DNA from: a virus
Lineage: Duplodnaviria; Caudoviricetes
Reading direction: 5' to 3' (one strand)
Virus record (IMG/VR): IMGVR_UViG_3300031825_000016
Coordinates: 1-51,955 of that record
Length of the DNA stretch: 51,955 bases
Below, one piece after another: positions 5,027 to 37,866 of the stretch. Numbering within the stretch: the stretch's first letter is position 1; each line of letters starts with the position of its first letter. A program made the translations under genes and the position numbers. The notes below the pieces were generated by a model. It saw only the letters and a program-made list of their open reading frames with translations. It was not told the DNA's origin and did no database searches.

Positions 5027-7894
5027 GTGATATTTATGTCATTTTTAAGAAAGACAAAAACAGTCATAAGTAATGGATCAAAAACAAACTTTCAGATGGG
5101 AAAACTCCGGTTGCATAAGGCAACCGGAGTTGATTCATCTGGTGGTACTAATGATTCCATTCAACATATTTATCTTGGAAACAATATAGATGACAATTTC
5201 TTTTGTGTTAGATTTTATGCACAGGACGGAATCACTCCATTAAAACACAGAAGGCTCAATGTGGCTTCCGGTGTCTCAGCGGATTTCATTGTTTTAATAC
5301 CTTCCATGCCCGCCGGTGGTCAGATTAGTATTTTTATTGATTATGCTATAAGCGGCTACTCGACCGAGAGTACAGACGAGACACTATTAAACATTAATGT
5401 AGATGGATTAAGATATTATCCTGAATTATATGATGCTCGAATAAATTGTGGGGAACCTAATATAAAATGGGATGCCACCGCAGGAAAGTTTAAACAATGG
5501 GGAGATGGCATACTTTATAACGCCAACGGTGGTGGCCCCTATGGAGCACCTTACAATGTATGGGTTGATGAATGGATAAGCCTTTTTTCCTCAGTTGATG
5601 GATTCACCTGGACTCTTGAAGGTGAAGTTGTACACCCAACAGATGGGGCACAGCGTCCTGGTATATATAGAGAAGATAACGGCACCGTTCACATGCTTGT
5701 TACTCCTTTCTATGACCCTACAAGACCTGGTGGAGGATTCGATTACTGGAGAAGTCCAAGCGGAAACCCAGGCACGTTTACATTAATACAAAAGAATGTA
5801 ATTTCCCCAGGTTCTACGGGTTCGTGGGATACAAATGCAGCAGGAAATGTTCACATTTATTATGAAAATAGTACATGGTACGTTCTTTATGAAGCTAGTA
5901 GCCCAAATAACAACTGGACAACAGGTATCGCTTCTGGCCCATCGTTAACACAATTAACTAAGTATAGCGGGAATCCAATATTATCAACGGCTAGTGGGCA
6001 ATCTTTTGGTGGCCCAGAAATGTATAAAATCAATGAGAAGTATTGTCTCTTTAGTCACGGATGGAAACCCGGAAATACTGCCGGTTCAACATTAGGTTTA
6101 TGGACTGCCGATAATATACTTGGACCATATAGTTGGCATTCTTGGCTGTTTCATAAACCTTTCCCCTATGGTTATGGTACGGGTGATTTATCCCAAGTAG
6201 GAGATGTAACCGTAACAGAAAAAGATGGAAAGACATATTTTTATTTTACTCAAAATATCAGCCAGTCAGTTCAGCCAGGAGAAACAGCTTTATCTCACAT
6301 GTCGCTGGTAACTTATGATGCACCATTATCTAGATTACTAGACCCTGTAATTACCACACACCGCAACGATGATCTTGTGGCTGAAGGTTGGGTGTTCGAT
6401 TCTGGGTATGGGGAGTATTCACCGGGGACTTGGAAAAGTGAAACAACTTATTTTCGAAAACGAACTATGAAAGATGCTACCCTGGCAGCACAAAGTCCTC
6501 CACACTATTATGTATCCGATATAATGCCCGTTGCTATTTGTGCTAAAACTGATTCTACGCATCAACTTAAAGTTAGAAAGCTAATAAATACCCCAAATGT
6601 TGAAAACACCTTTTATTCTTCTGCTAGGGCAGAACAAACTAATAAACGATTCATTCCTTTTCGGATTGATAAAGATAACACTGGCGGTATTTTAGCTGGT
6701 GTTGTCTTTGATTCTGATGGAAATTTGAAGTATTACAATGGTGCAGCATTAACCACAATCAAGGCTTATGTTGTAGGTACTTACTACAGTTTTAAGGCAA
6801 AGTGTCACACTTCTGGTTATGACCTGTATGTTGATGATTTTCAAACACCAGTGGCGACAAACATCCCTTATGCTTCAGCCTTTGCTCAACCTCAATACTT
6901 CTATGTTGAACAGGCTATGGGGGCAGAAGGGTATTTGGGATCACTCTATACTGTGCAGTATTCGGATGCGGCTACAGAGCCAACCTGGGGAGGAACAGGG
7001 ACTCCAAGCTCAACCCAAGCCGTCTACGACTCTTTAACCTACGACACAACGACCCTCGACCGCACCACGTCCCCCCTGGTGATACCACCAGCTGCATCCA
7101 CAGGCCAAGCATATGCTCCGACAGCCGCCAAGTCCGTAATGGTCCCTGTCGCTACCTCCGCAGGCCGAGCATTTGCACCCAAGGTAATATCCCCCGTTAC
7201 AGTCCCCGTGGCGACTTCGACAGGGCGGGCTTATGTCCCAGTGCCAGTAGGGGTTGTCAAAATACCCGTGGCCACCAGCACGGGACAGGCTAAAGCCCCA
7301 ACAGCTATTCGGATTGTGGCAGTACTAGCGGCAACCAGCACAGGCAGGGCAGTAGCGCCCATTGTAACGCTTCAGGTCAGCGTGATCCCTGCGGCGACAT
7401 CTACGGGGCGGGCAATACCACCAAGGTTGGTTGTGACGGTCAAGGTTCCCGCGGCGACGAGTACCGGCAGGGCTTACGCTCCCACGCTCAGCACCAAAGA
7501 CCACAAATCCCCGGTATTCAAATGGGTTGAGATGCCGGACAAATTGCAGTGGACAGAACTGCCAGACAAGCTTAAATGGGAGGTGATTGGCGAAATGATA
7601 TTCTATGTCGGCGATTACAAACCGGCTGAGATTAGAGTCAGTATGACAAGTGAATATCCGGACGAAACCTTCATATTGCTGAATGCTACTTACACCTGGA
7701 TTAAACCAGACGGAACCAAGGAAACCGGAACCGCAAGCATCGATGGTGATGTGCTTTATGTCTGGCTTAGGCCAACGCTCAAGGGGCATTTTCAGCCCTT
7801 GTTTTTTGAGGCAGAGGCTGTACTCAGCAAGAGCGGAACACAGAAAAGAGTATTCGGTCCAGTGCAAATCGACGTAAGAGAGGAGGCGGCATAA
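5027..7894 (+). CDS. Multidomain receptor-binding/tail protein: DUF2341-like N-terminus, glycoside-hydrolase-like beta-propeller, stalk repeats
   Basis: VRFYAQDGITPL..ADFIVLIPSMPAG; SVDGFTWT, GSWDT, KYSGNPIL propeller-like motifs; ATSTGRA repeats. Confidence 0.65.
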   Translation: MIFMSFLRKTKTVISNGSKTNFQMGKLRLHKATGVDSSGGTNDSIQHIYLGNNIDDNFFCVRFYAQDGITPLKHRRLNVASGVSADFIVLIPSMPAGGQISIFIDYAISGYSTESTDETLLNINVDGLRYYPELYDARINCGEPNIKWDATAGKFKQWGDGILYNANGGGPYGAPYNVWVDEWISLFSSVDGFTWTLEGEVVHPTDGAQRPGIYREDNGTVHMLVTPFYDPTRPGGGFDYWRSPSGNPGTFTLIQKNVISPGSTGSWDTNAAGNVHIYYENSTWYVLYEASSPNNNWTTGIASGPSLTQLTKYSGNPILSTASGQSFGGPEMYKINEKYCLFSHGWKPGNTAGSTLGLWTADNILGPYSWHSWLFHKPFPYGYGTGDLSQVGDVTVTEKDGKTYFYFTQNISQSVQPGETALSHMSLVTYDAPLSRLLDPVITTHRNDDLVAEGWVFDSGYGEYSPGTWKSETTYFRKRTMKDATLAAQSPPHYYVSDIMPVAICAKTDSTHQLKVRKLINTPNVENTFYSSARAEQTNKRFIPFRIDKDNTGGILAGVVFDSDGNLKYYNGAALTTIKAYVVGTYYSFKAKCHTSGYDLYVDDFQTPVATNIPYASAFAQPQYFYVEQAMGAEGYLGSLYTVQYSDAATEPTWGGTGTPSSTQAVYDSLTYDTTTLDRTTSPLVIPPAASTGQAYAPTAAKSVMVPVATSAGRAFAPKVISPVTVPVATSTGRAYVPVPVGVVKIPVATSTGQAKAPTAIRIVAVLAATSTGRAVAPIVTLQVSVIPAATSTGRAIPPRLVVTVKVPAATSTGRAYAPTLSTKDHKSPVFKWVEMPDKLQWTELPDKLKWEVIGEMIFYVGDYKPAEIRVSMTSEYPDETFILLNATYTWIKPDGTKETGTASIDGDVLYVWLRPTLKGHFQPLFFEAEAVLSKSGTQKRVFGPVQIDVREEAA
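7082..7483 (+). repeat. Seven ~20-aa protein repeats ([IV]PxATSTGRAxxP)
   Basis: Read from translation; DNA copies diverged. Confidence 0.85.
7595..7894 (+). CDS. In-frame embedded gene / internal start (99 aa, MIFYVGDYKPAEIRV...)
   Basis: GGAGGTGA at 7579-7586, 8 nt before in-frame ATG 7595. Confidence 0.5.
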   Translation: MIFYVGDYKPAEIRVSMTSEYPDETFILLNATYTWIKPDGTKETGTASIDGDVLYVWLRPTLKGHFQPLFFEAEAVLSKSGTQKRVFGPVQIDVREEAA

Positions 7895-7946
7895 ACTGGC
7901 TGACTAGGTTGGCCTTTGTTTCCATCTTCCCGCCTTCCGGCGATTA

Positions 7947-7955
7947 TGATACAAT
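7947..7955 (+). promoter_or_regulatory. Extended -10 sigma-A promoter
   Basis: TGaTACAAT, 6 nt upstream of a structured element. Confidence 0.5.
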
Positions 7956-7961
7956 GATCAA

Positions 7962-8094
7962 GCCAGGGACTAGACCGGGGGTAGCTCCCTCGGTGACAAA
8001 CGGTTGCCCGCCGGTCCCTGGTACTTTGGGCAGCCCCATGGGCAAGGGTGCTATTGCACCTAACAAAAGACTTCGCTTTATGCGGGGTCTTTTT
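7962..8094 (+). ncRNA. Candidate pseudoknotted small RNA
   Basis: P1 GCCAGGGACT/GGTCCCTGGT; inner hairpin ACCGGGGG/CCCTCGGT; pseudoknot GGTTGCCC/GGGCAGCC; own promoter and terminator. Confidence 0.6.
8065..8094 (+). terminator. Rho-independent terminator
   Basis: AAAAGACTTCGC-TTTAT-GCGGGGTCTTTTT. Confidence 0.75.
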
Positions 8095-8118
8095 GTATTA
8101 CAGAAAGTAGGTGTTTAG

Positions 8119-8340
8119 GTGAGTGATGAACTAATCAAAATCGCACGACTAGAAGAAAAGGTTGATACACTAGAGCGACTTTACACCGCTGTCCAGAATG
8201 CGTTTAACGCGCGATTTGAAAAGCTGGAAGCCAAGTTAGACGAAGCGTTAAAGCGTCCATCTTGGTCAGTGGTGACTGTTGTCACTCTGCTTACCACCGT
8301 CACAGGCGGCCTAGTGGTGTATGTGCTAACAAAACATTAA
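8119..8340 (+). CDS. XhlA/holin-like protein (coiled coil plus C-terminal TM helix)
   Basis: Directly before endolysin; single C-terminal hydrophobic helix. Confidence 0.65.
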   Translation: MSDELIKIARLEEKVDTLERLYTAVQNAFNARFEKLEAKLDEALKRPSWSVVTVVTLLTTVTGGLVVYVLTKH

Positions 8341-8353
8341 AGGAGATGTTTTT

Positions 8354-9124
8354 ATGTCAATCTGCATTGACCCCGGGCATTCAGGCTCTGACCCTGGCGC
8401 AGTAGCCAACGGCCTACAGGAAAAAGATTTAACCCTGGCGATAAGCAAAAAGGTATTAGCCAGGCTTGACAGTTCAGCCTTCCCCACTCATACAGATGAT
8501 TCCTTCGTGGATCTCGATGTTCGCGCAGTTATTGCAAATAATGCAAAAGCTCAATACTTCTGCTCAATCCACATTAATGCCGGTGGAGGTACAGGTTTTG
8601 AGTCCTATGTCTTCGACGGCCCACACTCCCCCGAGACTGATCGGATCCGCGACATAATTCATTCGCATGTTGCCAAGGTTTTCGCAGCTCACGGACTGCC
8701 CGACAGGGGCAAGAAATCTGCCAACTTTGCTGTACTGCGTGAAACCGCTATGCCGGCTTGCCTGTTGGAGTTGGGTTTTATCGACAGTACACTGGATTCC
8801 TCATACCTCAGAACTGATTCCTTCCAGAATGAGCTTGCAGATGCCATTGCAACAGGGTTGAATGAAGCACTAGGGCAAACACCCGCACCTGCTCCCCAGG
8901 CCGTCCCTGCGCCCCCTCCTGTGGTTCATGTGCCATATCCCGGTTCCCTTATCCTAATAGGAAGCAGGGGAAACGCCGTGAAGATGATTCAAAGGGTTGT
9001 AGGCGTTAGGGATGATGGGATATTTGGGCCTGTAACTGATGGCGCAGTAAGACGTTGGCAGGATGCCCACGGACTTATTCCCGATGGTCAAGTGGGCCCA
9101 TTAACTTGGGCAAAAATGTTTTAA
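8354..9124 (+). CDS. Endolysin: N-acetylmuramoyl-L-alanine amidase (Amidase_3) plus PG-binding domain
   Basis: IDPGHSGSDPGA, EKDLTL, SIHINA, LLELGF; C-terminal DGIFGPVT/DGQVGPLTW. Confidence 0.95.
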   Translation: MSICIDPGHSGSDPGAVANGLQEKDLTLAISKKVLARLDSSAFPTHTDDSFVDLDVRAVIANNAKAQYFCSIHINAGGGTGFESYVFDGPHSPETDRIRDIIHSHVAKVFAAHGLPDRGKKSANFAVLRETAMPACLLELGFIDSTLDSSYLRTDSFQNELADAIATGLNEALGQTPAPAPQAVPAPPPVVHVPYPGSLILIGSRGNAVKMIQRVVGVRDDGIFGPVTDGAVRRWQDAHGLIPDGQVGPLTWAKMF

Positions 9125-9145
9125 TTAAGAAAGGTGGAAAAACAA

Positions 9146-9502
9146 ATGGAACTCAAACACGATCTATTAACCAGTAAATACACAAAGGTTTACCATGAAC
9201 CTCCCGAAGAAATGAATTACAACGCTCCGCACTGCTTCTCTGTTTGCCGGGTTGAAGGTGACGAAAACCTTGCAGAGATCCATTTTCAAGAAGGTCCAAT
9301 AAAAGAATGTGGCGTGAATGGCGTCTGCAACGAGGACCTAATTGCAATGGTTATTACCCGCCTGGAGCATTTCCAAAAATCCCAGTTTTCCTGCCGAGAG
9401 AATGCCTTGGCAATTACCAAACTCGAAGAGGCGATGCTCTGGCTTCGCAAGCGTACCATGGGTCGTGAGAATCGCGGAGTCGAAGGAACTCATATTAAGT
9501 AA
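9146..9502 (+). CDS. tad1: Tad1/Acb2-family anti-defence sponge protein
   Basis: [47 protein letters not shown] match the Tad1 pattern as I recall it. Confidence 0.8.
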
Positions 9503-9516
9503 AGGAGAGTGATACC

Positions 9517-9846
9517 ATGTTAAACCGACTCAAAAACCCCGTTTTCCTGGCTGCGGCTATAGCCTTTCTTTATCAGTTCGCCAACTTCATTGCGAACCGT
9601 TACCTTGGGGTTGTGATTGATCCCAAGACTTGGCAGGAGTTTTTCAACCTGGTATTCTACATCATCATTGGTGCAGGGATTTATTCCAGCTACCAGTCTA
9701 ATTCCCCAACCTCTGCTGTTCCACCCGTAGTTCAACCGTTGATACCGCAGACCCCTAATATTAGTCCAACTACTCCATTTATTCCAGCGCATGGGCATGG
9801 GCCAGATTCGGCAGGGAGTCCAGCATTTGCTCGGCCTGAAGGATGA
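9517..9846 (+). CDS. Holin-like two-TM protein with Pro-rich tail
   Basis: MLNRLKNPVF holin-type start, two hydrophobic segments. Confidence 0.75.
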   Translation: MLNRLKNPVFLAAAIAFLYQFANFIANRYLGVVIDPKTWQEFFNLVFYIIIGAGIYSSYQSNSPTSAVPPVVQPLIPQTPNISPTTPFIPAHGHGPDSAGSPAFARPEG

Positions 9847-9958
9847 CGGTTTATTTGGCCCGGTTACCTGGGGGACTGTCATGCGGTTCCAAGCTGAGAA
9901 TGGCCTTGCCTCTGATGGGGTTGTGGGTCCAAATACGTGGGCGAGGTTGCTAGGCTAA
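9791..9958 (+). CDS. Peptidoglycan-binding domain in +1 frame of the holin tail (55 aa, absent from ORF track)
   Basis: VQHLLGLKDDGLFGPVTWGTVMRFQAENGLASDGVVGPNTWARLLG; no evident RBS. Confidence 0.7.
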   Translation: MGMGQIRQGVQHLLGLKDDGLFGPVTWGTVMRFQAENGLASDGVVGPNTWARLLG

Positions 9959-9980
9959 ATTCCCAAGCGCTTGGGAATTT
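9957..9980. repeat. 24-bp perfect palindrome, copy 1
   Basis: AAATTCCCAAGCGCTTGGGAATTT. Confidence 0.95.
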
Positions 9981-10000
9981 GAAGGAAGGAGTGGAGATCC

Positions 10001-10592
10001 TTGAAAACCAGATTCATAAAAGCGAGTTGGCACTCAAATCCGCATACAACGATATTGGGGCGAAGGATGCCAAGGCTACAGCGGCAATCACGAAGCTGAG
10101 AACGTATTCCGTTTTCCGACTATGATTGACATGAAAGATGCCAGTGCCAAGATGGACGAGCTTTACAAAGACCCAGAGAGTTGGCCGACTCACTGTAAGT
10201 ATTGCGGGGCTCCGGTAGCGGAAGATGATGCTAGAACATCCGCGGGTACTCTCCCAATCTTCGATAACGGTTGCGACCAGCTAGAGCCGGGGGATATGTA
10301 TTTTGCCCAAATGCACGAACCAGACGAGCCATGTTACTTCGCTGGCTGGGAGAATTGTGACGGTAAGCATCTTCACGTAGTTCTGCCTAACGGCGATCGC
10401 TGGGATGTCGATAGCAGGGCAAGTAACTGCACTATGCCAGAGGATAAGACCCACCGTTGCTGGGTTAGACACGGTGAGCCGCCAAATGTCCATGTAGACA
10501 AAAACGGAAACACTTGTCAGGCCGGTGCAGGATCCATTCTGTCGGGAGATTACCACGGATTCCTACACAATGGCGAATTAACGAGCTGTTAA
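10001..10592 (+). CDS. Cys/His-rich uncharacterised protein; 5' end apparently +1 frameshifted near 10019
   Basis: RBS then TTG 10001 (MKTRFIK); +1 frame is open from 10020 (KRVGTQIRIQRYWGEGC...) into ORF 10122-10592. Confidence 0.6.
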
Positions 10593-10606
10593 AGGAGTGT
10601 TTATTT

Positions 10607-11029
10607 ATGCCACAAGACTTTTTTACTTTAGGATCCCTGGCCACGTTCGCCGGGTTGGTGCTGGCGGTGTACCTTATCGTGCTGTTTAGCAAGTCCTTCC
10701 TTAAATACCTGGTGAGTCTGGTTAGTAAGACAATCTTAGACGGGGATCTCGGGGATTTCGTGATCCAGCTCTACGCCGCTGTAGTGGCCCTGCTGATAAT
10801 GCTGCTTGTTGTGCAGGTGCAGGGCGTAGGGTTGGCTTTAATTAACGCCGTGCTGGTGGCTTTGGCTGCTACAGGGCTGCACGAGACTATTAAACGACCT
10901 ATTGTAGCAGGGCAGAAGGCAAGTCTAGTAGACAGTGCTGCTGAGATTGCTACATCTAACGCATCTACCGTACCGACCTCCACAGAGACCGCTTCGCCGC
11001 CCGCGACTCCAGCGCAGACAAATCAATAG
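10607..11029 (+). CDS. Second holin-like multi-TM protein
   Basis: AAAGGAGTG RBS; MPQDFFTLGSLATFAG start; about three TM segments. Confidence 0.65.
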   Translation: MPQDFFTLGSLATFAGLVLAVYLIVLFSKSFLKYLVSLVSKTILDGDLGDFVIQLYAAVVALLIMLLVVQVQGVGLALINAVLVALAATGLHETIKRPIVAGQKASLVDSAAEIATSNASTVPTSTETASPPATPAQTNQ

Positions 11030-11047
11030 GCAACTGTATTAACCATG

Positions 11048-11078
11048 GCCTCTCCTTCGGGGGAGGCTTTTTTCTTTT
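11048..11078 (+). terminator. Rho-independent terminator ending the late operon
   Basis: GCCTCTCC-TTCG-GGGGAGGC then T-run. Confidence 0.9.
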
Positions 11079-11126
11079 GTCAAAGAACAGGTATATGTAA
11101 AGGGGAGATGTACGACTCCCTCGGTG

Positions 11127-11197
11127 TGGGATCCCGCGACTCCCAGGCTTGTCCCAGGAGTTTCGGCCTGCTCCCATCAGGCCATCGTCAGGCGGGG
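11127..11197 (-). ncRNA. Type I hammerhead ribozyme (extra U after the CUGANGA core)
   Basis: Minus strand CCCGC CUGACGA U GGCCUG AUGGGAG CAGGCC GAAA CUCCUGGG ACAAG CCUGGGAG UC^GCGGG; loop UGGGA can pair with downstream UCCCA. Confidence 0.9.
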
Positions 11198-11201
11198 TTT
11201 A

Positions 11202-11348
11202 TTACTCGTGCCAACCTTTTTTGCTTCCTGTTCTTCTACATAATTCATTTTCGTACCATTCCAACGGATAGCCGCCACGAGGGGCACATCCATTTTTATA
11301 TGTCCATATGGCACAACGTAAATCGTCATTGGTCCAATTCTCAAACAT
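11202..11348 (-). CDS. 48-aa hypothetical protein (MFENWTNDDLRCAIW...), absent from ORF track
   Basis: Purine-rich RBS GAAAGGAACGAGAGGT; stop 4 nt before the ribozyme. Confidence 0.65.
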   Translation of the reverse strand: MFENWTNDDLRCAIWTYKNGCAPRGGYPLEWYENELCRRTGSKKGWHE

Positions 11349-11374
11349 ACCTCTCGTTCCTTTCATCCTTTACA

Positions 11375-11399
11375 CCGGGATTAGCCGCCCGGCTCGGCT
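11375..11399 (-). ncRNA. Compact intergenic H-type pseudoknot
   Basis: AGCCG-AG-CCGGG-CGGCU-AAU-CCCGG, two perfect 5-bp interleaved stems. Confidence 0.7.
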
Positions 11400-11405
11400 T
11401 TGCGC

Positions 11406-11720
11406 TTATTCCGCAGTGTATGCTTGCCACTTCTTAGTAACTCTGCACTCAAGAATGTATCTACACTTTCCTTCGGAGTCATACACGAAGTACGGATGTT
11501 CTGTTCCAACACCTTTTAGGCTTTCCTTGATACTGTTCTTGTAGCGTTTGCCTTCTTCCAGGGCCTTGATGGCAGCGTCTACGTTCCCGGTTTTACGGGC
11601 TTCTGCTACCTGTCTTCCTCGTTCTTTTGCCCAGCGTTTCACGCTGATAAAGTAATCTGGATTAAGTCCTGTTCGAATACTCCAGCCAGTGGGGACATTT
11701 TTTCTAGTTAGCTTTTTCAT
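11406..11720 (-). CDS. Basic hypothetical protein
   Basis: AAAGGGAGG RBS; 104 aa. Confidence 0.7.
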   Translation of the reverse strand: MKKLTRKNVPTGWSIRTGLNPDYFISVKRWAKERGRQVAEARKTGNVDAAIKALEEGKRYKNSIKESLKGVGTEHPYFVYDSEGKCRYILECRVTKKWQAYTAE

Positions 11721-11852
11721 GACTTCGGCCTCCCTTTAATCATCCTGTAGTTATAATATACCATGCTTTAAAATGCTTTACAATAGGTAATTTCGGGTAT
11801 TGCAAAATATTTTATAATGCCGTAAAATGTAAAGCGTAGGGAGTGTGATTTT

Positions 11853-12020
11853 ATGGCAGGAAGACCACCTAAAGAAGACAAGAAAATAAGAGAGGCAATT
11901 TACTTTGAGCCAGAGCTATTGGCATGGCTTAAGGAAAATGCCTACAGGCAGAAGTGTACTGTAAGCGTAGTTGTAAATGTGCTAGTAGAAAAGGAGAGAA
12001 ATGCGGAGAACAAAAAATAA
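11853..12020 (+). CDS. Ribbon-helix-helix (CopG/Arc-like) regulator, 55 aa, absent from ORF track
   Basis: MAGRPPKEDKKIREAIYFEPELLAWLKE...TVSVVVNVLVE; RBS; TTGCAA-17-TAAAAT upstream. Confidence 0.7.
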   Translation: MAGRPPKEDKKIREAIYFEPELLAWLKENAYRQKCTVSVVVNVLVEKERNAENKK

Positions 12021-12083
12021 AGCTGGAGTGATCTCCAGCTCTCTAAGCAACGCTGCACAGTTTTCAATGTGCGAAAAGAGTAA

Positions 12084-12115
12084 CCCCCCAACCCTAATCG
12101 GCTGGGGGCTTTTTG
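12084..12115. terminator. Terminator between convergent genes
   Basis: C-rich/G-rich stem followed by TTTTT. Confidence 0.55.
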
Positions 12116-12119
12116 CGTC

Positions 12120-12698
12120 TTAATCTACTTTTAATTCAATATCTTTGCCAGTCATCCCGCCGCGGGCCTTAAGTTTAAAGCCTTTGGCATCGGGCGGAAC
12201 ATCGAATACTACTTCACCAGATACGGACAGACCCGGGTTAATTTGCTTCAAGAACAGGCCCTCTTTATTATCGGCCATTGCAGCACTCTGCGCTTCTGTT
12301 GATGCTGTGAACTCGCGTCCCTTGTCGTCTATAAGTTTAAATAGGCTTCCGTCCATCGTGATGGCATCCTTCTGATTATTAGTGACCGTCAGCTTGACGA
12401 TTTTAAATATTCCAGAAGCCTTTGCAGTCATAAATTGATTCTTGCCGTATGTGGGCGCTGTTGAGCTGCCGGTGACTTGAAATTTAACGCTTGAAACTTC
12501 GCCTTGGTTGGAAAGTTCTTTCTTGGCTTCAGGCTGTTTGGCAGGCTCTGACTTAGTTGTGCTGGGGGCGGTTGATTCCGATGTGGTGGACTTTGATCCG
12601 CCACTGCTATTTGCAGCTACAGCGATAACTGCGATCACCACAATAACCCAAAACCACCAGCGCTTCCAGACTGACTTTTTAACTTTTTCTCCACTCAC
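12120..12698 (-). CDS. Membrane-anchored DUF4352-like protein (possible superinfection exclusion)
   Basis: KKSVWKRWWFW plus TM; FKLIDDKGREF, INPGLSVSGEVVFDVP. Confidence 0.8.
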   Translation of the reverse strand: MSGEKVKKSVWKRWWFWVIVVIAVIAVAANSSGGSKSTTSESTAPSTTKSEPAKQPEAKKELSNQGEVSSVKFQVTGSSTAPTYGKNQFMTAKASGIFKIVKLTVTNNQKDAITMDGSLFKLIDDKGREFTASTEAQSAAMADNKEGLFLKQINPGLSVSGEVVFDVPPDAKGFKLKARGGMTGKDIELKVD

Positions 12699-17314: not shown

Positions 17315-18445
17315 CTATTGTATCTGTTTTTGCTGGAGCTCAACAATCCTTTTGTTAATTTTCTCTTTCTTTTCAACTCCAAGGTGCTGATATGTCTCTT
17401 TTAAAACTCTAATATCGTGTCCTAGGCGCTCGGCTGCTAAATGATCTAGCACATCATTTTCATACAGCCAAGTCGCATGATAATGCCGAAGAAAGTGCAA
17501 ACGGGTCTTCGGTATTTTTTTTTCTCTAACCAGTTCGGCGAGGTAACTGGAATAACTGTCAGGGCGCATAGGGAAGATAAATTTATCTGCCTTATCCTTC
17601 TTATCAGTAATTTGAACTACCTGAGACTGAGACTCTTTTTTCTTCTTTTTCTTACGGAGCGTAAACCAATCCGGGTTGACCTGTTTTAATAGGTTCATCA
17701 GATAAGGCGCTGTTGCCACATCTCTTAGTCCGTTTTCTGACTTGGTCTTTTTGAGCTCATATTTGCCCTGATCGTTAATTACATAAGCTTCATCCACTCG
17801 AATCGTGCTGTTTTCAAAGTCCAAATCGTTCCACTTTAAGGCAAATATTTCCTCGCGCCGCAATCCACACCAGGCTGCCAGAAGGATAATAGGCTCATCC
17901 CTGGTGCCATTGACGGCATCGAGAATCTTTTTAAATGCTTCTTCATTTTTTGGCACAGTTGAATAATCAACTTTTTCTGCTTTGGGGAGCTTAAGATCAT
18001 TGAATGGGGACCTCTTTTTTAGCGCATCATAGAAAATCGGTCTTAGGCAAGACATAATTCGTCTTACACTCGTTGCTGATTGTTTAGCCAGTAAATCGTT
18101 CATCAGCTTCTTAAGATGCATTTCTCTTAAGTCTTTGAATTTCATTCGCTTAAAAAAGGGCTCATAGTAATTTTTGTGATAGCTCAAGTACAAAACATAA
18201 GTACTTGGGCTATATTTGTTTTTGTGAATTTCGAGCCAGGTTTTGATCCATTCGGAGATTCGATGATTATCAACGTTGGTTAAAGTTCCTTCTTCAATCA
18301 ATTGCTCTAACTCACGCACTGCTTTTTTAATTTCCTTTTCGCTGTGCTTGGTCACGTATTTGTTGATCTTCTTACCGTTTTCATCCCTCCCAACATAAAC
18401 CGTGGCTTGCCAGGTTCCATCTGCCCGTTTTCGAATGCTTGCCAT
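17315..18445 (-). CDS. int: Tyrosine integrase
   Basis: GLRREEI, KTKS, HFLRH, LGH, TYQH catalytic set; arm-binding N-terminus. Confidence 0.95.
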   Translation of the reverse strand: MASIRKRADGTWQATVYVGRDENGKKINKYVTKHSEKEIKKAVRELEQLIEEGTLTNVDNHRISEWIKTWLEIHKNKYSPSTYVLYLSYHKNYYEPFFKRMKFKDLREMHLKKLMNDLLAKQSATSVRRIMSCLRPIFYDALKKRSPFNDLKLPKAEKVDYSTVPKNEEAFKKILDAVNGTRDEPIILLAAWCGLRREEIFALKWNDLDFENSTIRVDEAYVINDQGKYELKKTKSENGLRDVATAPYLMNLLKQVNPDWFTLRKKKKKKESQSQVVQITDKKDKADKFIFPMRPDSYSSYLAELVREKKIPKTRLHFLRHYHATWLYENDVLDHLAAERLGHDIRVLKETYQHLGVEKKEKINKRIVELQQKQIQ

Positions 18446-18448
18446 TTA

Positions 18449-19096
18449 CTATCGCACCTCGCTGCTAAATCTTATTGCTTTTCCAATAATGGATATTTGT
18501 TTCATATCCTTCTTGGCAAAAACCAAATCTTTGTGGTTCGGGTTTTCGGCATGTAAGGTAATTGTGCCATCCCCTTTGTAAACCCGTTTTAGGGTAGCAT
18601 TCTCTCCATCTATCAAAACAGCAGCAATTTCCCCATTCTCGACGTCGGGCTGCTGGTGTATATATACGAGGTCACCATCGAGGATCCGAGCGTTCATCAT
18701 GGAATCGCCTTTTACACGGAGGCAAAAATCTGCCGGCATGTTCTCTGGAATAAAATCGTGACCTTCAACATTTTCTTGGGCCAGAATAGGAATGTCAGCA
18801 GCAATTACGCCAAGGATTGGGATTCGTTTAAAGGAAGGCATTTTGTCAACCTTTTCATATTTATCTCTTGTCCGGCACATTAAGAAATCTGTCGTAACGC
18901 CATAGAACTCGGCGATCTCTTCTACAAGTGAAAAGCTCTGAGGCCTATGGATGTTATTTTCATACTTTGAAACCATTGGCTTGCTTAGTGGCTTTGAATT
19001 CGGGAATTTCTTGTTCATCTCATGCGCGAATTCTTCTATCGTCATGTCATTCTCTTTACGAAGTCTAAATAACCGATCTCCAAATTGTTCCTTCAT
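18449..19096 (-). CDS. CI/LexA-like repressor (HTH plus S24 autopeptidase)
   Basis: HTH; VKGDSM and ATLKR catalytic motifs. Confidence 0.92.
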   Translation of the reverse strand: MKEQFGDRLFRLRKENDMTIEEFAHEMNKKFPNSKPLSKPMVSKYENNIHRPQSFSLVEEIAEFYGVTTDFLMCRTRDKYEKVDKMPSFKRIPILGVIAADIPILAQENVEGHDFIPENMPADFCLRVKGDSMMNARILDGDLVYIHQQPDVENGEIAAVLIDGENATLKRVYKGDGTITLHAENPNHKDLVFAKKDMKQISIIGKAIRFSSEVR

Positions 19097-37094: not shown

Positions 37095-37196
37095 ATGGAG
37101 GAGCAGGGAAATATTTTCGGAGGCTGCTTAGTTGCACTGGCGATTGAATTGGCAGCGGCTGCAGTGATAATTGGCGTGATTTGGCTAGTAGCTTGA
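37095..37196 (+). CDS. 33-aa single-TM peptide
   Basis: MEEQGNIFGGCLVALAIELAAAAVIIGVIWLVA. Confidence 0.5.
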   Translation: MEEQGNIFGGCLVALAIELAAAAVIIGVIWLVA

Positions 37197-37210
37197 AGGA
37201 GGTGGCAGAT

Positions 37211-37726
37211 TTGGACGAAATAATCTCAAAAGCGATTTTTGCCACGACAGAACGGTGGCTGTATAATCTTAGTAAATGGCGGGCCGAGATAGTTGTCCTA
37301 CAGGAGCAGCTGAATGACCATACTGGCAAGGTGACTGTAGGTTATACTCAGGGTGGATCCGGAGGAGGCGGAACTGGTGATGGTACATTCGCCAGGGCAA
37401 CAGTTGTGCTGGAGGCAGAGGGAGAGCTACCGAGGCTTTTAACTAAAGCTCTAGTGATTGAGGCTGCGTTAAAATCTTTGCCAGATTCGTGGAGGAGACT
37501 GGTTGACCTAAAGTATATAAGTGGCTGGGACAACTCTTTGGTATGGTGTAATATGTCCATAAGCGAAGCAGAGTTTTATAGAGACCGCCGGGATGCCATC
37601 GCGCAGCTAAATGAAATCCTTTGGAAGGATTGGCTATTTAGGCAAGACGTAGAAGGTAAGGTCGTCAAAATTCGAGAGAAAATAGCCCGGGAATTAGCAA
37701 GAGATGAGCAGGTAAAAAAGGGCTAA
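37211..37726 (+). CDS. ArpU/RinA-like late transcription activator
   Basis: AAGGAGGTG RBS, TTG 37211; LVDLKY..MSISEAEFYRDRRDAI; last early gene. Confidence 0.8.
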   Translation: MDEIISKAIFATTERWLYNLSKWRAEIVVLQEQLNDHTGKVTVGYTQGGSGGGGTGDGTFARATVVLEAEGELPRLLTKALVIEAALKSLPDSWRRLVDLKYISGWDNSLVWCNMSISEAEFYRDRRDAIAQLNEILWKDWLFRQDVEGKVVKIREKIARELARDEQVKKG

Positions 37727-37735
37727 AAAGTGCTT

Positions 37736-37801
37736 TGACAGAAAAATGATTGGATTTTGATAGGAATTTGACAGTACATCTTGACTTATAAGTAGTACAA
37801 T
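37736..37801 (+). promoter_or_regulatory. Late promoter with four 11-bp-phased TGA[CT][AT]G repeats
   Basis: TGACAG 37736, TGATTG 37747, TGATAG 37758, TGACAG 37769; TACAAT 37796. Confidence 0.7.
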
Positions 37802-37838
37802 AGAGCTAGAGGCGACAATTACAAACAAGCGAATTGCT

Positions 37839-37866
37839 AAGGCTGCCATTTATGGGCGGCTTTTTT
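37839..37866 (+). terminator. Terminator-like hairpin just after the late promoter
   Basis: GGCTGCC-ATTTATG-GGCGGCT then T-run. Confidence 0.65.

Follow-up and report, generated by a model that had tools for sequence, protein, structure and literature searches.

The virus record IMGVR_UViG_3300031825_000016 (Duplodnaviria; Caudoviricetes), which was analyzed here as a single window of 51,955 b comprising the complete IMG/VR record, was found to carry a strongly folded RNA element in a 224-b gap (7895-8118) between its tail-fiber-like gene and its lysis genes. In this gap, a fold biased toward the + strand is preceded by a promoter-like box and followed by an intrinsic terminator that no alternative antiterminator fold opposes, and the gene order places the lysis genes immediately behind it. 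Based on the position of the terminator, its constitutive character, and the placement of the box for a start at the first helix, our preferred though tentative interpretation is that the element constitutes a self-contained unit for a 133-nt RNA, which would also serve as leader to the lysis and accessory operon. The features on which this interpretation draws are as follows.

7898-7921, + strand: weak terminator-like hairpin from the terminator scan (7 bp with 2 G.U pairs, hairpin 7898-7914, followed by TTTGTTT)
7927-7955, + strand: putative sigma-A promoter, with a -35-like TTCCCG at 7927-7932, a 17-nt spacer and an extended -10
7945-7955, + strand: TRTG-extended -10 TATGATACAAT, ending 7 nt upstream of G7962, where P1 begins
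7962-7971/8013-8022, + strand: helix P1, 10 bp with 2 G.U pairs
7974-7981/7987-7994, + strand: helix P2, 8 bp with 1 G.U pair and the loop UAGCU
7962-8022, + strand: 5' domain, P1 enclosing P2 and an 18-nt junction (7995-8012)
8002-8009/8028-8035, + strand: candidate H-type pseudoknot helix, 8 bp with 1 G.U pair
8046-8051/8056-8061, + strand: 6-bp hairpin GGGUGC-UAUU-GCACCU, from RNAfold
8065-8076/8082-8093, with U5 at 8090-8094, + strand: intrinsic terminator with an A-tract and the loop UUUAU
7962-8094, + strand: predicted RNA of ~133 nt, from the inferred start at G7962 to the end of the U-run, both ends lying in helices

To evaluate the fold, the stretch 7947-8094 was subjected to RNAfold on both strands. 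The + strand reached -68.0 kcal/mol (z -4.40), a stability matched by 0/200 dinucleotide shuffles, while the - strand reached -55.4 kcal/mol (z -2.34; 3/200 shuffles as stable). The strand bias is explained by 8-9 G.U pairs, found in each of the helical parts (P1, P2, the candidate pseudoknot, the hairpin at 8046-8061, and the terminator), which turn into A.C mismatches when the - strand is folded; these pairs thus mark the + strand as the folded one. The 5' domain was recovered in both the minimum free energy (MFE) and the centroid structures, and an inverted repeat, I2, was detected in it as well. When both strands of the genome were scanned for folds in 140-nt windows at a step of 20, with energy regressed on composition, window 7961-8100 (+) ranked 5th of ~5,180, and all four better windows belonged to one locus at 35.6-35.9 kb; by this measure, the element is the second most structured locus in the 52-kb genome. 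Its composition was likewise distinct from that of the genome (48.2% GC), with 58.6% GC for the full predicted RNA and 63.7% for the core 7962-8063, which falls in the top 0.44% of 102-nt windows. A sequence-only reading that preceded this analysis had listed the helices, the small hairpin, the terminator, and an extended -10, and had taken the G.U pairs to favor the + strand; all of these were recovered by the computations described here.

The candidate pseudoknot helix was found to be extendable to 9 bp via G8010.U8027 (8002-8010/8027-8035), with a duplex energy of -17.1 kcal/mol and with GC (8011-8012; GCC at 8010-8012 in the 8-bp form) and ACUU (8023-8026) as the connecting loops. Such a pseudoknot would be sterically possible, and we regard it as plausible rather than established. 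Caution is called for, since its helix energy was reached in 87/5000 shuffles when both partners were shuffled and in 254/5000 when a longer tail was shuffled, and since the helix competes with two 4-bp local hairpins. It can alternatively form as a plain hairpin without P1, at -63.5 kcal/mol versus -66.7 kcal/mol for the MFE structure.

Two further pairings were noticed in the same RNA. A 9-nt pairing, 7973-7981/8008-8016 (89% complementary; inverted repeat I3), would join the 5' strand of P2 with the junction and with the first bases of the 3' strand of P1; it is incompatible with P2 and the inner part of P1, and may represent a second conformer or a by-product of G/C runs. In addition, CACCUAA at 8057-8063, that is, the 3' arm of the 6-bp hairpin plus AA, is complementary by eye both to the Shine-Dalgarno sequence UAGGUG at 8108-8113 and to UUAGGUG across the GTG start of the next gene (8115-8121). 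This pairing, for which no chance comparison was made, could mask translation in read-through transcripts.

The -10 box TATGATACAAT conforms to the TRTG-extended -10 of the Gram-positive sigma-A promoter consensus, and it is the sole TRTGNTANAAT in the 51,955-b genome on either strand. What is telling about this box is its position alone: it lies on the strand that folds, within a non-coding gap, and stops 7 nt short of P1. A consensus promoter scan, which requires two good hexamers, called no promoter in 7500-8600. Upstream of the putative promoter, the weak terminator-like hairpin starts 3 nt after the stop codon of the tail-fiber-like gene, and the unit is thus bracketed by terminator-like structures on both sides.

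The terminator at 8065-8094 was identified from RNAfold, from inverted repeat I1, and from reading of the sequence. Its core is an 8-bp G+C helix (8069-8076/8082-8089) with 2 G.U pairs, and it works on the + strand only. The pattern-based terminator scan did not list it, we think because the longest stem apparently absorbs the U-run. In folds of the growing transcript, the 5' arm of the terminator stayed unpaired until the 3' arm was present, and forcing this arm to pair upstream gave at best -54.4 kcal/mol versus -66.7 kcal/mol, a cost of ~12 kcal/mol. Given that no competing antiterminator fold was found, the terminator was judged to be constitutive, without riboswitch or classical attenuator logic, and the genes downstream would consequently need read-through. 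Between the end of the terminator and the first lysis gene lie 25 nt, in which no promoter was seen; the RNA would therefore also be the 5' leader of the lysis operon. As the terminator precedes 8119 and no promoter was called in 7500-8600, polymerases on the + strand must cross the terminator to reach the lysis genes.

Taken together in the interpretation that we favor, a sigma-A-type extended -10 promoter would start the + RNA at about G7962, and the transcript would fold at once into the closed 5' domain (P1 around P2), a possible pseudoknot to the 3' tail, and the second hairpin. Transcription would then end at the constitutive intrinsic terminator at 8094, so that the default product would be a stable ~133-nt RNA with both ends held in helices. 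The same RNA would form the 5' leader of the operon 8119-11029, which encodes an XhlA-like membrane protein, an endolysin, a Tad1-like protein, and a possible holin. These lysis genes would be expressed only by polymerases that read through the terminator, either by leakage or through a factor, of phage or host origin, that acts on the folded leader, and the element would in this way set the amount and timing of lysis-gene expression. The earlier description of the element as a stand-alone non-coding RNA accordingly needs an amendment: its non-coding and strongly folded nature and its own promoter-like box and terminator held up at the level of sequence, while its independence is doubtful, in that the RNA would also be the leader of the lysis operon.

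The genes and signals around the gap, together with the lysogeny genes, are listed below.

5027-7894, + strand: tail-fiber-like gene, 955 aa, directly upstream of the gap, stop codon at 7892-7894
7909-8118, + strand: 69-aa open reading frame (ORF) with a TTG start, whose TAG stop abuts the GTG at 8119
8108-8113, + strand: Shine-Dalgarno sequence UAGGUG before the GTG start at 8119
8119-8340, + strand: 73-aa gene with a GTG start, the first of the lysis and accessory operon
8354-9124, + strand: Amidase_3/PG_binding_1 endolysin gene
9134-9502, + strand: Tad1-like gene (PF24729 at E 9e-6; phrog_2428 at E 1.4e-49)
9517-9846, + strand: gene for a 109-aa protein, membrane-like by eye, a possible holin
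up to 11029, + strand: further ORFs of the downstream unit
11047-11068, + strand: strong terminator closing the downstream unit, the next strong + terminator in the scan
17315-18445, - strand: tyrosine integrase gene
18449-19096, - strand: S24/HTH repressor gene

The 73-aa protein at the head of the operon has a coiled-coil N-terminus and a single C-terminal membrane helix. It matched phrog_689 'holin' at E 2.7e-4 and Pfam XhlA merely at E 2.8, and it had no relatives among 5.8 billion proteins; one further contig carries it. Beside the 109-aa ORF, a 55-aa ORF at 9791-9958 (+) overlaps its end and matches phrog_2649 at E 2.8e-10. This match corresponds to the peptidoglycan-binding C-terminus of endolysins and duplicates the C-terminal domain of the endolysin encoded at 8354-9124, and the 55-aa ORF may be either a remnant or an independent module for binding the cell wall.

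Among documented layouts, that of RCd22-AbiF in the phi027 prophage of Clostridioides difficile comes closest; it is part of the lysis module of this prophage, and a SigA promoter, a 132-nt RNA, and a Rho-independent terminator are described for it (PMC12373285). That report places no promoter before the next gene and describes both short and read-through transcripts (PMC12373285). The present element, with its predicted promoter, ~133-nt RNA, and terminator, would share this layout, and it too is located in a prophage lysis module. The RNAs themselves differ: RCd22 is described as containing two abiF motifs (RF03085) and as preceding an Abi_2/AbiF toxin gene (PMC12373285), whereas no abiF match was obtained here at E <= 10. 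Unlike in RCd22, the next gene here encodes the 73-aa holin/XhlA-like membrane protein, and neither Pfam nor PADLOC revealed an Abi_2 gene downstream.

A comparable logic is known from phage lambda, where the constitutive promoter pR' produces the short 6S RNA, which is terminated at tR' before S-R-Rz, and the lysis genes are expressed by read-through. The pR'-tR' region, which requires Q, stands at the head of the whole late operon; in the phage studied here, unlike in lambda, the structural genes precede the element, leaving the lysis cassette as the final block. None of the ~20 phage proteins scanned was recognized as Q-like, and blastn against 50,697 phage records showed no sequence likeness of the RNA beyond one chance match.

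Several observations weigh against the leader interpretation. A terminator before a prophage endolysin is nothing special, as a Virgibacillus prophage also has one; no antiterminator protein was recognized among the ~20 phage proteins scanned; and the late regulator resembles an activator (phrog_36, phrog_248). As for the promoter, the single TRTG box per genome compares with 0.96 expected by chance (TGNTAYAAT, 4 occurrences versus 3.05 expected), and the -35 is poor, TTCCCG matching 3/6 positions as read by eye. The core 7962-8063 without the terminator reached merely z -2.64, with 3/200 shuffles as good. No diverged homologue was found in the searched collections, the one further copy being identical in sequence, and the fold accordingly showed no covariation or other sign of selection.

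Among the alternatives, a purely trans-acting small RNA (sRNA) is possible although doubtful. The element would then be a 'moron', a term that denotes an independent gene with its own promoter and terminator, slipped as a promoter-gene-terminator cassette between late genes. Its RNA would be produced by the prophage or at an early stage of infection, its target would be an mRNA or a protein of host or phage, and the lysis genes would be its neighbors by accident. An independent sRNA gene does look like this, with a promoter, 5' and 3' ends capped by helices, and terminators on either flank, and accessory genes crowd the region 9.1-17 kb just downstream. Nevertheless, comparison of three exposed segments of the RNA with the start regions of 272 phage ORFs yielded no standout target, the best duplexes being no better than those of shuffled segments (5/60, 24/60, and 11/60 shuffles as good, respectively). 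Moreover, a trans-acting role would leave the passage of the lysis genes past the terminator unexplained.

We consider it doubtful, too, that the element is only a passive structure at the end of an operon, in which the folds and the two terminators would end or stabilize the structural mRNA and lower read-through into the lysis genes. In that event, the promoter-like box would be a chance occurrence, and no discrete RNA would start at 7962. The weak -35 and the box count close to the chance expectation, the large part of the fold's statistical weight that comes with the terminator, the terminators that related prophages likewise place before the endolysin, and the lack of conservation beyond one phage are all in keeping with this explanation. 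On the other hand, a 3' untranslated region would have no need, downstream of a first terminator, for nested helices and a possible pseudoknot within a 100-nt GC island, and a -10 box lying 7 nt before the first paired base would be a coincidence.

An RNA antiterminator acting in cis, in the manner of HK022 put, Bacillus EAR, or the plasmid RNA conAn2, appears unlikely as the full explanation. In this case, the RNA would stay with its polymerase past the 8094 terminator and would act, alone or with a protein partner, on this and any later terminators; the explanation is thus partly nested in the leader interpretation. RNA antiterminators of this kind are described in mobile elements of Gram-positive bacteria (PMC8191782; PMC9378689), and conAn2 is reported to act best on a nearby terminator (PMC8191782). 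The element shares with put, EAR, and conAn2 a structured RNA just upstream of an intrinsic terminator in a mobile element, here that of a Gram-positive host, and essential genes are located behind this terminator. It differs in that conAn2, as described, is much larger and pairs with the ConAn1 protein. The put RNA consists of two stem-loops without a pseudoknot. No antiterminator-RNA family was matched in Rfam, in which conAn2 and put may not be included, and no partner protein was identified among the ~20 proteins scanned; if the RNA acted alone, a terminator right behind it would be pointless. A more far-reaching proposal, to which we assign little weight, is that the fold would act in cis as a new kind of handle, either on RNA polymerase or on a partner made by the phage, turning the constitutive 8094 terminator into a timed gate, so that a Bacillota phage would time its lysis by means of its own leader RNA. 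The RNA would then be a put/EAR/conAn2-like antiterminator with a new pseudoknotted architecture; in a variant, the terminated 133-nt RNA would in addition restrain the XhlA-like protein in a type III toxin-antitoxin (TA)-like fashion.

A ligand-sensing riboswitch controlling the lysis cassette is very unlikely. The element does show a common riboswitch outline, in which a junction closed by P1 and bearing a pseudoknot precedes a terminator, and a c-di-GMP riboswitch has been described in a phage lysis module. However, no Rfam riboswitch class was matched at E <= 10, an independent hairpin separates the would-be aptamer from the terminator, and no fold competes with the latter, its 5' arm being unpaired in every partial transcript and pairable upstream only at the 12 kcal/mol cost given above.

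The sequence-only reading had gone on to suggest that the RNA might be an antitoxin decoy, mimicking a host type III (ToxI-like) or AbiF-type RNA antitoxin, which we now hold to be highly improbable. Phage mimics of ToxI RNA are described (PMC3475682), and the anti-defense Tad1-like gene, which that reading had noted about 1 kb away and which does lie 1 kb downstream, belongs to the same operon. The element moreover shares with the type III TA RNAs (ToxI, CptI, TenpI) the order of promoter, RNA, terminator, and downstream gene, with the promoter here being predicted, and a pseudoknotted RNA, with the pseudoknot here being a candidate. Type III TA antitoxins are tandem repeats of ~34-45 nt that are processed by the endoribonuclease toxin. 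The present RNA, unlike these, has a single non-repeated fold, and no ToxN/AbiQ/CptN-type toxin gene adjoins it. TRF found 0 tandem repeats in 7800-8200 (score >= 30), and a repeat search with seed 6 found 0 direct-repeat families in 7895-8118. The neighboring genes are not toxins: PADLOC matched no toxin or Abi model among 9 neighboring proteins, with 0 matches for the 6 downstream proteins and the 69-aa ORF and two weak, unrelated matches for 12120-12698. The chromosomal homologues near Abi or toxin genes that the decoy idea called for did not materialize either, no credible counterpart having been found by the covariance model described below in three 151-genome samples and 5 individual genomes.

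That the 69-aa ORF is a real gene and the folds incidental can scarcely be credited. Its frame is open across the whole gap and its stop abuts the GTG at 8119, but such a length is not rarely open in one of three frames, and the ORF begins with TTG. No Shine-Dalgarno sequence was seen by eye before any of its three start candidates, and no Pfam, PHROG, or PADLOC match was obtained. Among 1.84 billion cluster representatives, only a single low-complexity match was found (E 4.8e-4, to a stretch of a 5837-aa protein), and the ORF was on this ground judged not to be conserved as a protein, in line with the initial view of the element as non-coding. The Pro/Gly-rich composition of its translation is attributable to the G+C stems. 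Recoding of the fiber gene by the pseudoknot was also considered and rejected: the stop codon lies 68 nt upstream, and the frames are unconnected.

No family could be assigned to the RNA at the outset, and this remained so after model searches. Rfam 15 gave no match at gathering score in the whole window, and cmscan with lax filters at E <= 10 over 7000-9000 and 7940-8100 returned no abiF, ToxI-type, EAR, riboswitch, or ribozyme model. Sub-threshold matches to generic families (among them RNAI, 20.7 bits versus a threshold of 47, and Leu_leader, 19.1 versus 50) were attributed to the hairpins and the terminator. The region 11000-12200 likewise had no Rfam match at E <= 1 with lax filters.

Nucleotide searches were similarly unproductive. 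Against the 50,697 phage records, blastn (word 11) gave one 41-nt match of 87.8% identity in a Microcystis phage (E 1e-3), which covers query positions 180-219, from the terminator to the Shine-Dalgarno stretch, and was taken as chance; against 72,556 plasmids, it gave no match. Across 74 loci, the best blastn alignment spanned 18 nt at E 0.31 and nhmmer found nothing. An exact 20-mer had 0 matches in IMG/VR, and two gapped 9-mers occurred there at 3 loci, 0/3 of which were matched by R1, a single-sequence covariance model of 7960-8063 and thus a weak kind of model. An exact 18-mer hit 47 loci in metagenome contigs, all of which were rejected as chance since no alignment to the query exceeded 30 nt (90% identity).

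R1 was applied to ~1.36 Mb of loci, to the 5 individual genomes, and to the three 151-genome samples, which are samples and not full collections. It found only itself in 99 sources (857 kb), one match of 10.2 bits (E 8.7) in 71 further sources (501 kb), and nothing in the individual genomes (0/5). In the Paenibacillus-family sample, 1/151 genomes gave a match at E 0.0084, which was rejected as it consists of two plain hairpins with the 41-nt core deleted. The order-level sample gave 0/151, and the phylum-level sample gave 1/151 at chance level (E 0.068).

The surroundings of the element were equally isolated. The tail fiber had no relatives in phage records and none in 401 sampled genomes, and those found among 5.8 billion proteins were at merely 36-38% identity; of the upstream 710-aa protein, only an Ig-like domain is common to other contigs. 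Relatives of the endolysin (9 viral and 64 genomic loci) and of the Tad1-like protein (65 loci) had different neighbors and no such RNA. In a survey of the gaps upstream of related endolysins, with results for 37 of 38 loci, two of which share one record, the two structured gaps inspected were ordinary terminators or hairpins. A second copy of the element was found in a groundwater metagenome run of a different study, with 0 differences over 7845-8800; altogether, two public DNA runs contain the stretch, one of them perhaps the source sample, so that the phage is present in two samples; a third run covers the stretch up to 7919 only, and a fourth gave no coverage. Judged from these comparisons, the RNA appears to lie outside every described family tested by sequence or model and to be so far a single-member example of its arrangement, and the phage appears to be an orphan around the folded-RNA locus among the searched collections.

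The virus is a temperate siphovirus-type phage of a Bacillota (Bacillus-like) host. Its large terminase shares 60% identity with the terminase of Caldibacillus phage CBP1 and 59% with those of Bacillus phages, and the closest relatives of its endolysin (49-55% identity) are found in Halobacillus, Paranoxybacillus, and Virgibacillus prophages. The genes from terminase to tail run from 38.8 kb through the end of the record to 7.9 kb, upstream of the element, with the lysis genes last. The record, although classed as 'linear', looks circularly permuted inside the tail module, because the last ORF (50213-51955) runs off its 3' end and the tail genes resume from position 275.

If the unit works as we read it, the timing of lysis in this phage would depend on an RNA leader and a terminator, and not on holin accumulation alone. 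To our knowledge, there are very few phages in which a gate ahead of the lysis genes has been characterized at the RNA level (lambda 6S/tR' and RCd22-AbiF are examples). A third fold in this position, unrelated to the others, would point to a slot into which structured RNAs are recruited time and again. The Tad1-like anti-defense gene lies behind the same gate, and if the leader interpretation is true, the element would also decide the timing of this gene. What is new here is the RNA fold itself, while promoter-RNA-terminator leaders before phage lysis or Abi genes are already known. We regard the fold as real and its strand and boundaries as well argued, and its function as a candidate rather than a finding: the fold may serve as a handle for a factor or the polymerase, may act in trans, or may merely stabilize the RNA, each of which is compatible with the sequence.

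Two other regions of the genome drew attention. The most structured locus, 35601-35943 (+), occupies the gap between the primase/AAA_25 and PhageMetallopep genes and folds as a whole at -131.7 kcal/mol (z -9.27). Four or more boxes of the GGTTGCAGAAAAC type, with TTCTGCA partners in inverted orientation, are followed there by CCTATAAT and next by a long near-perfect hairpin at ~35815-35895; the locus may represent an iteron-bearing origin or a promoter under heavy regulation. At 37735-37863 (+), three TTGAC(A/T) boxes and a TACAAT directly follow the phrog_36/phrog_248 activator gene (37181-37726), and a good terminator at 37839-37863 is followed by a small ORF, an HNH gene, and the terminase genes. 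The stretch may be where the late promoter lies, and it would again have a promoter-then-terminator layout.

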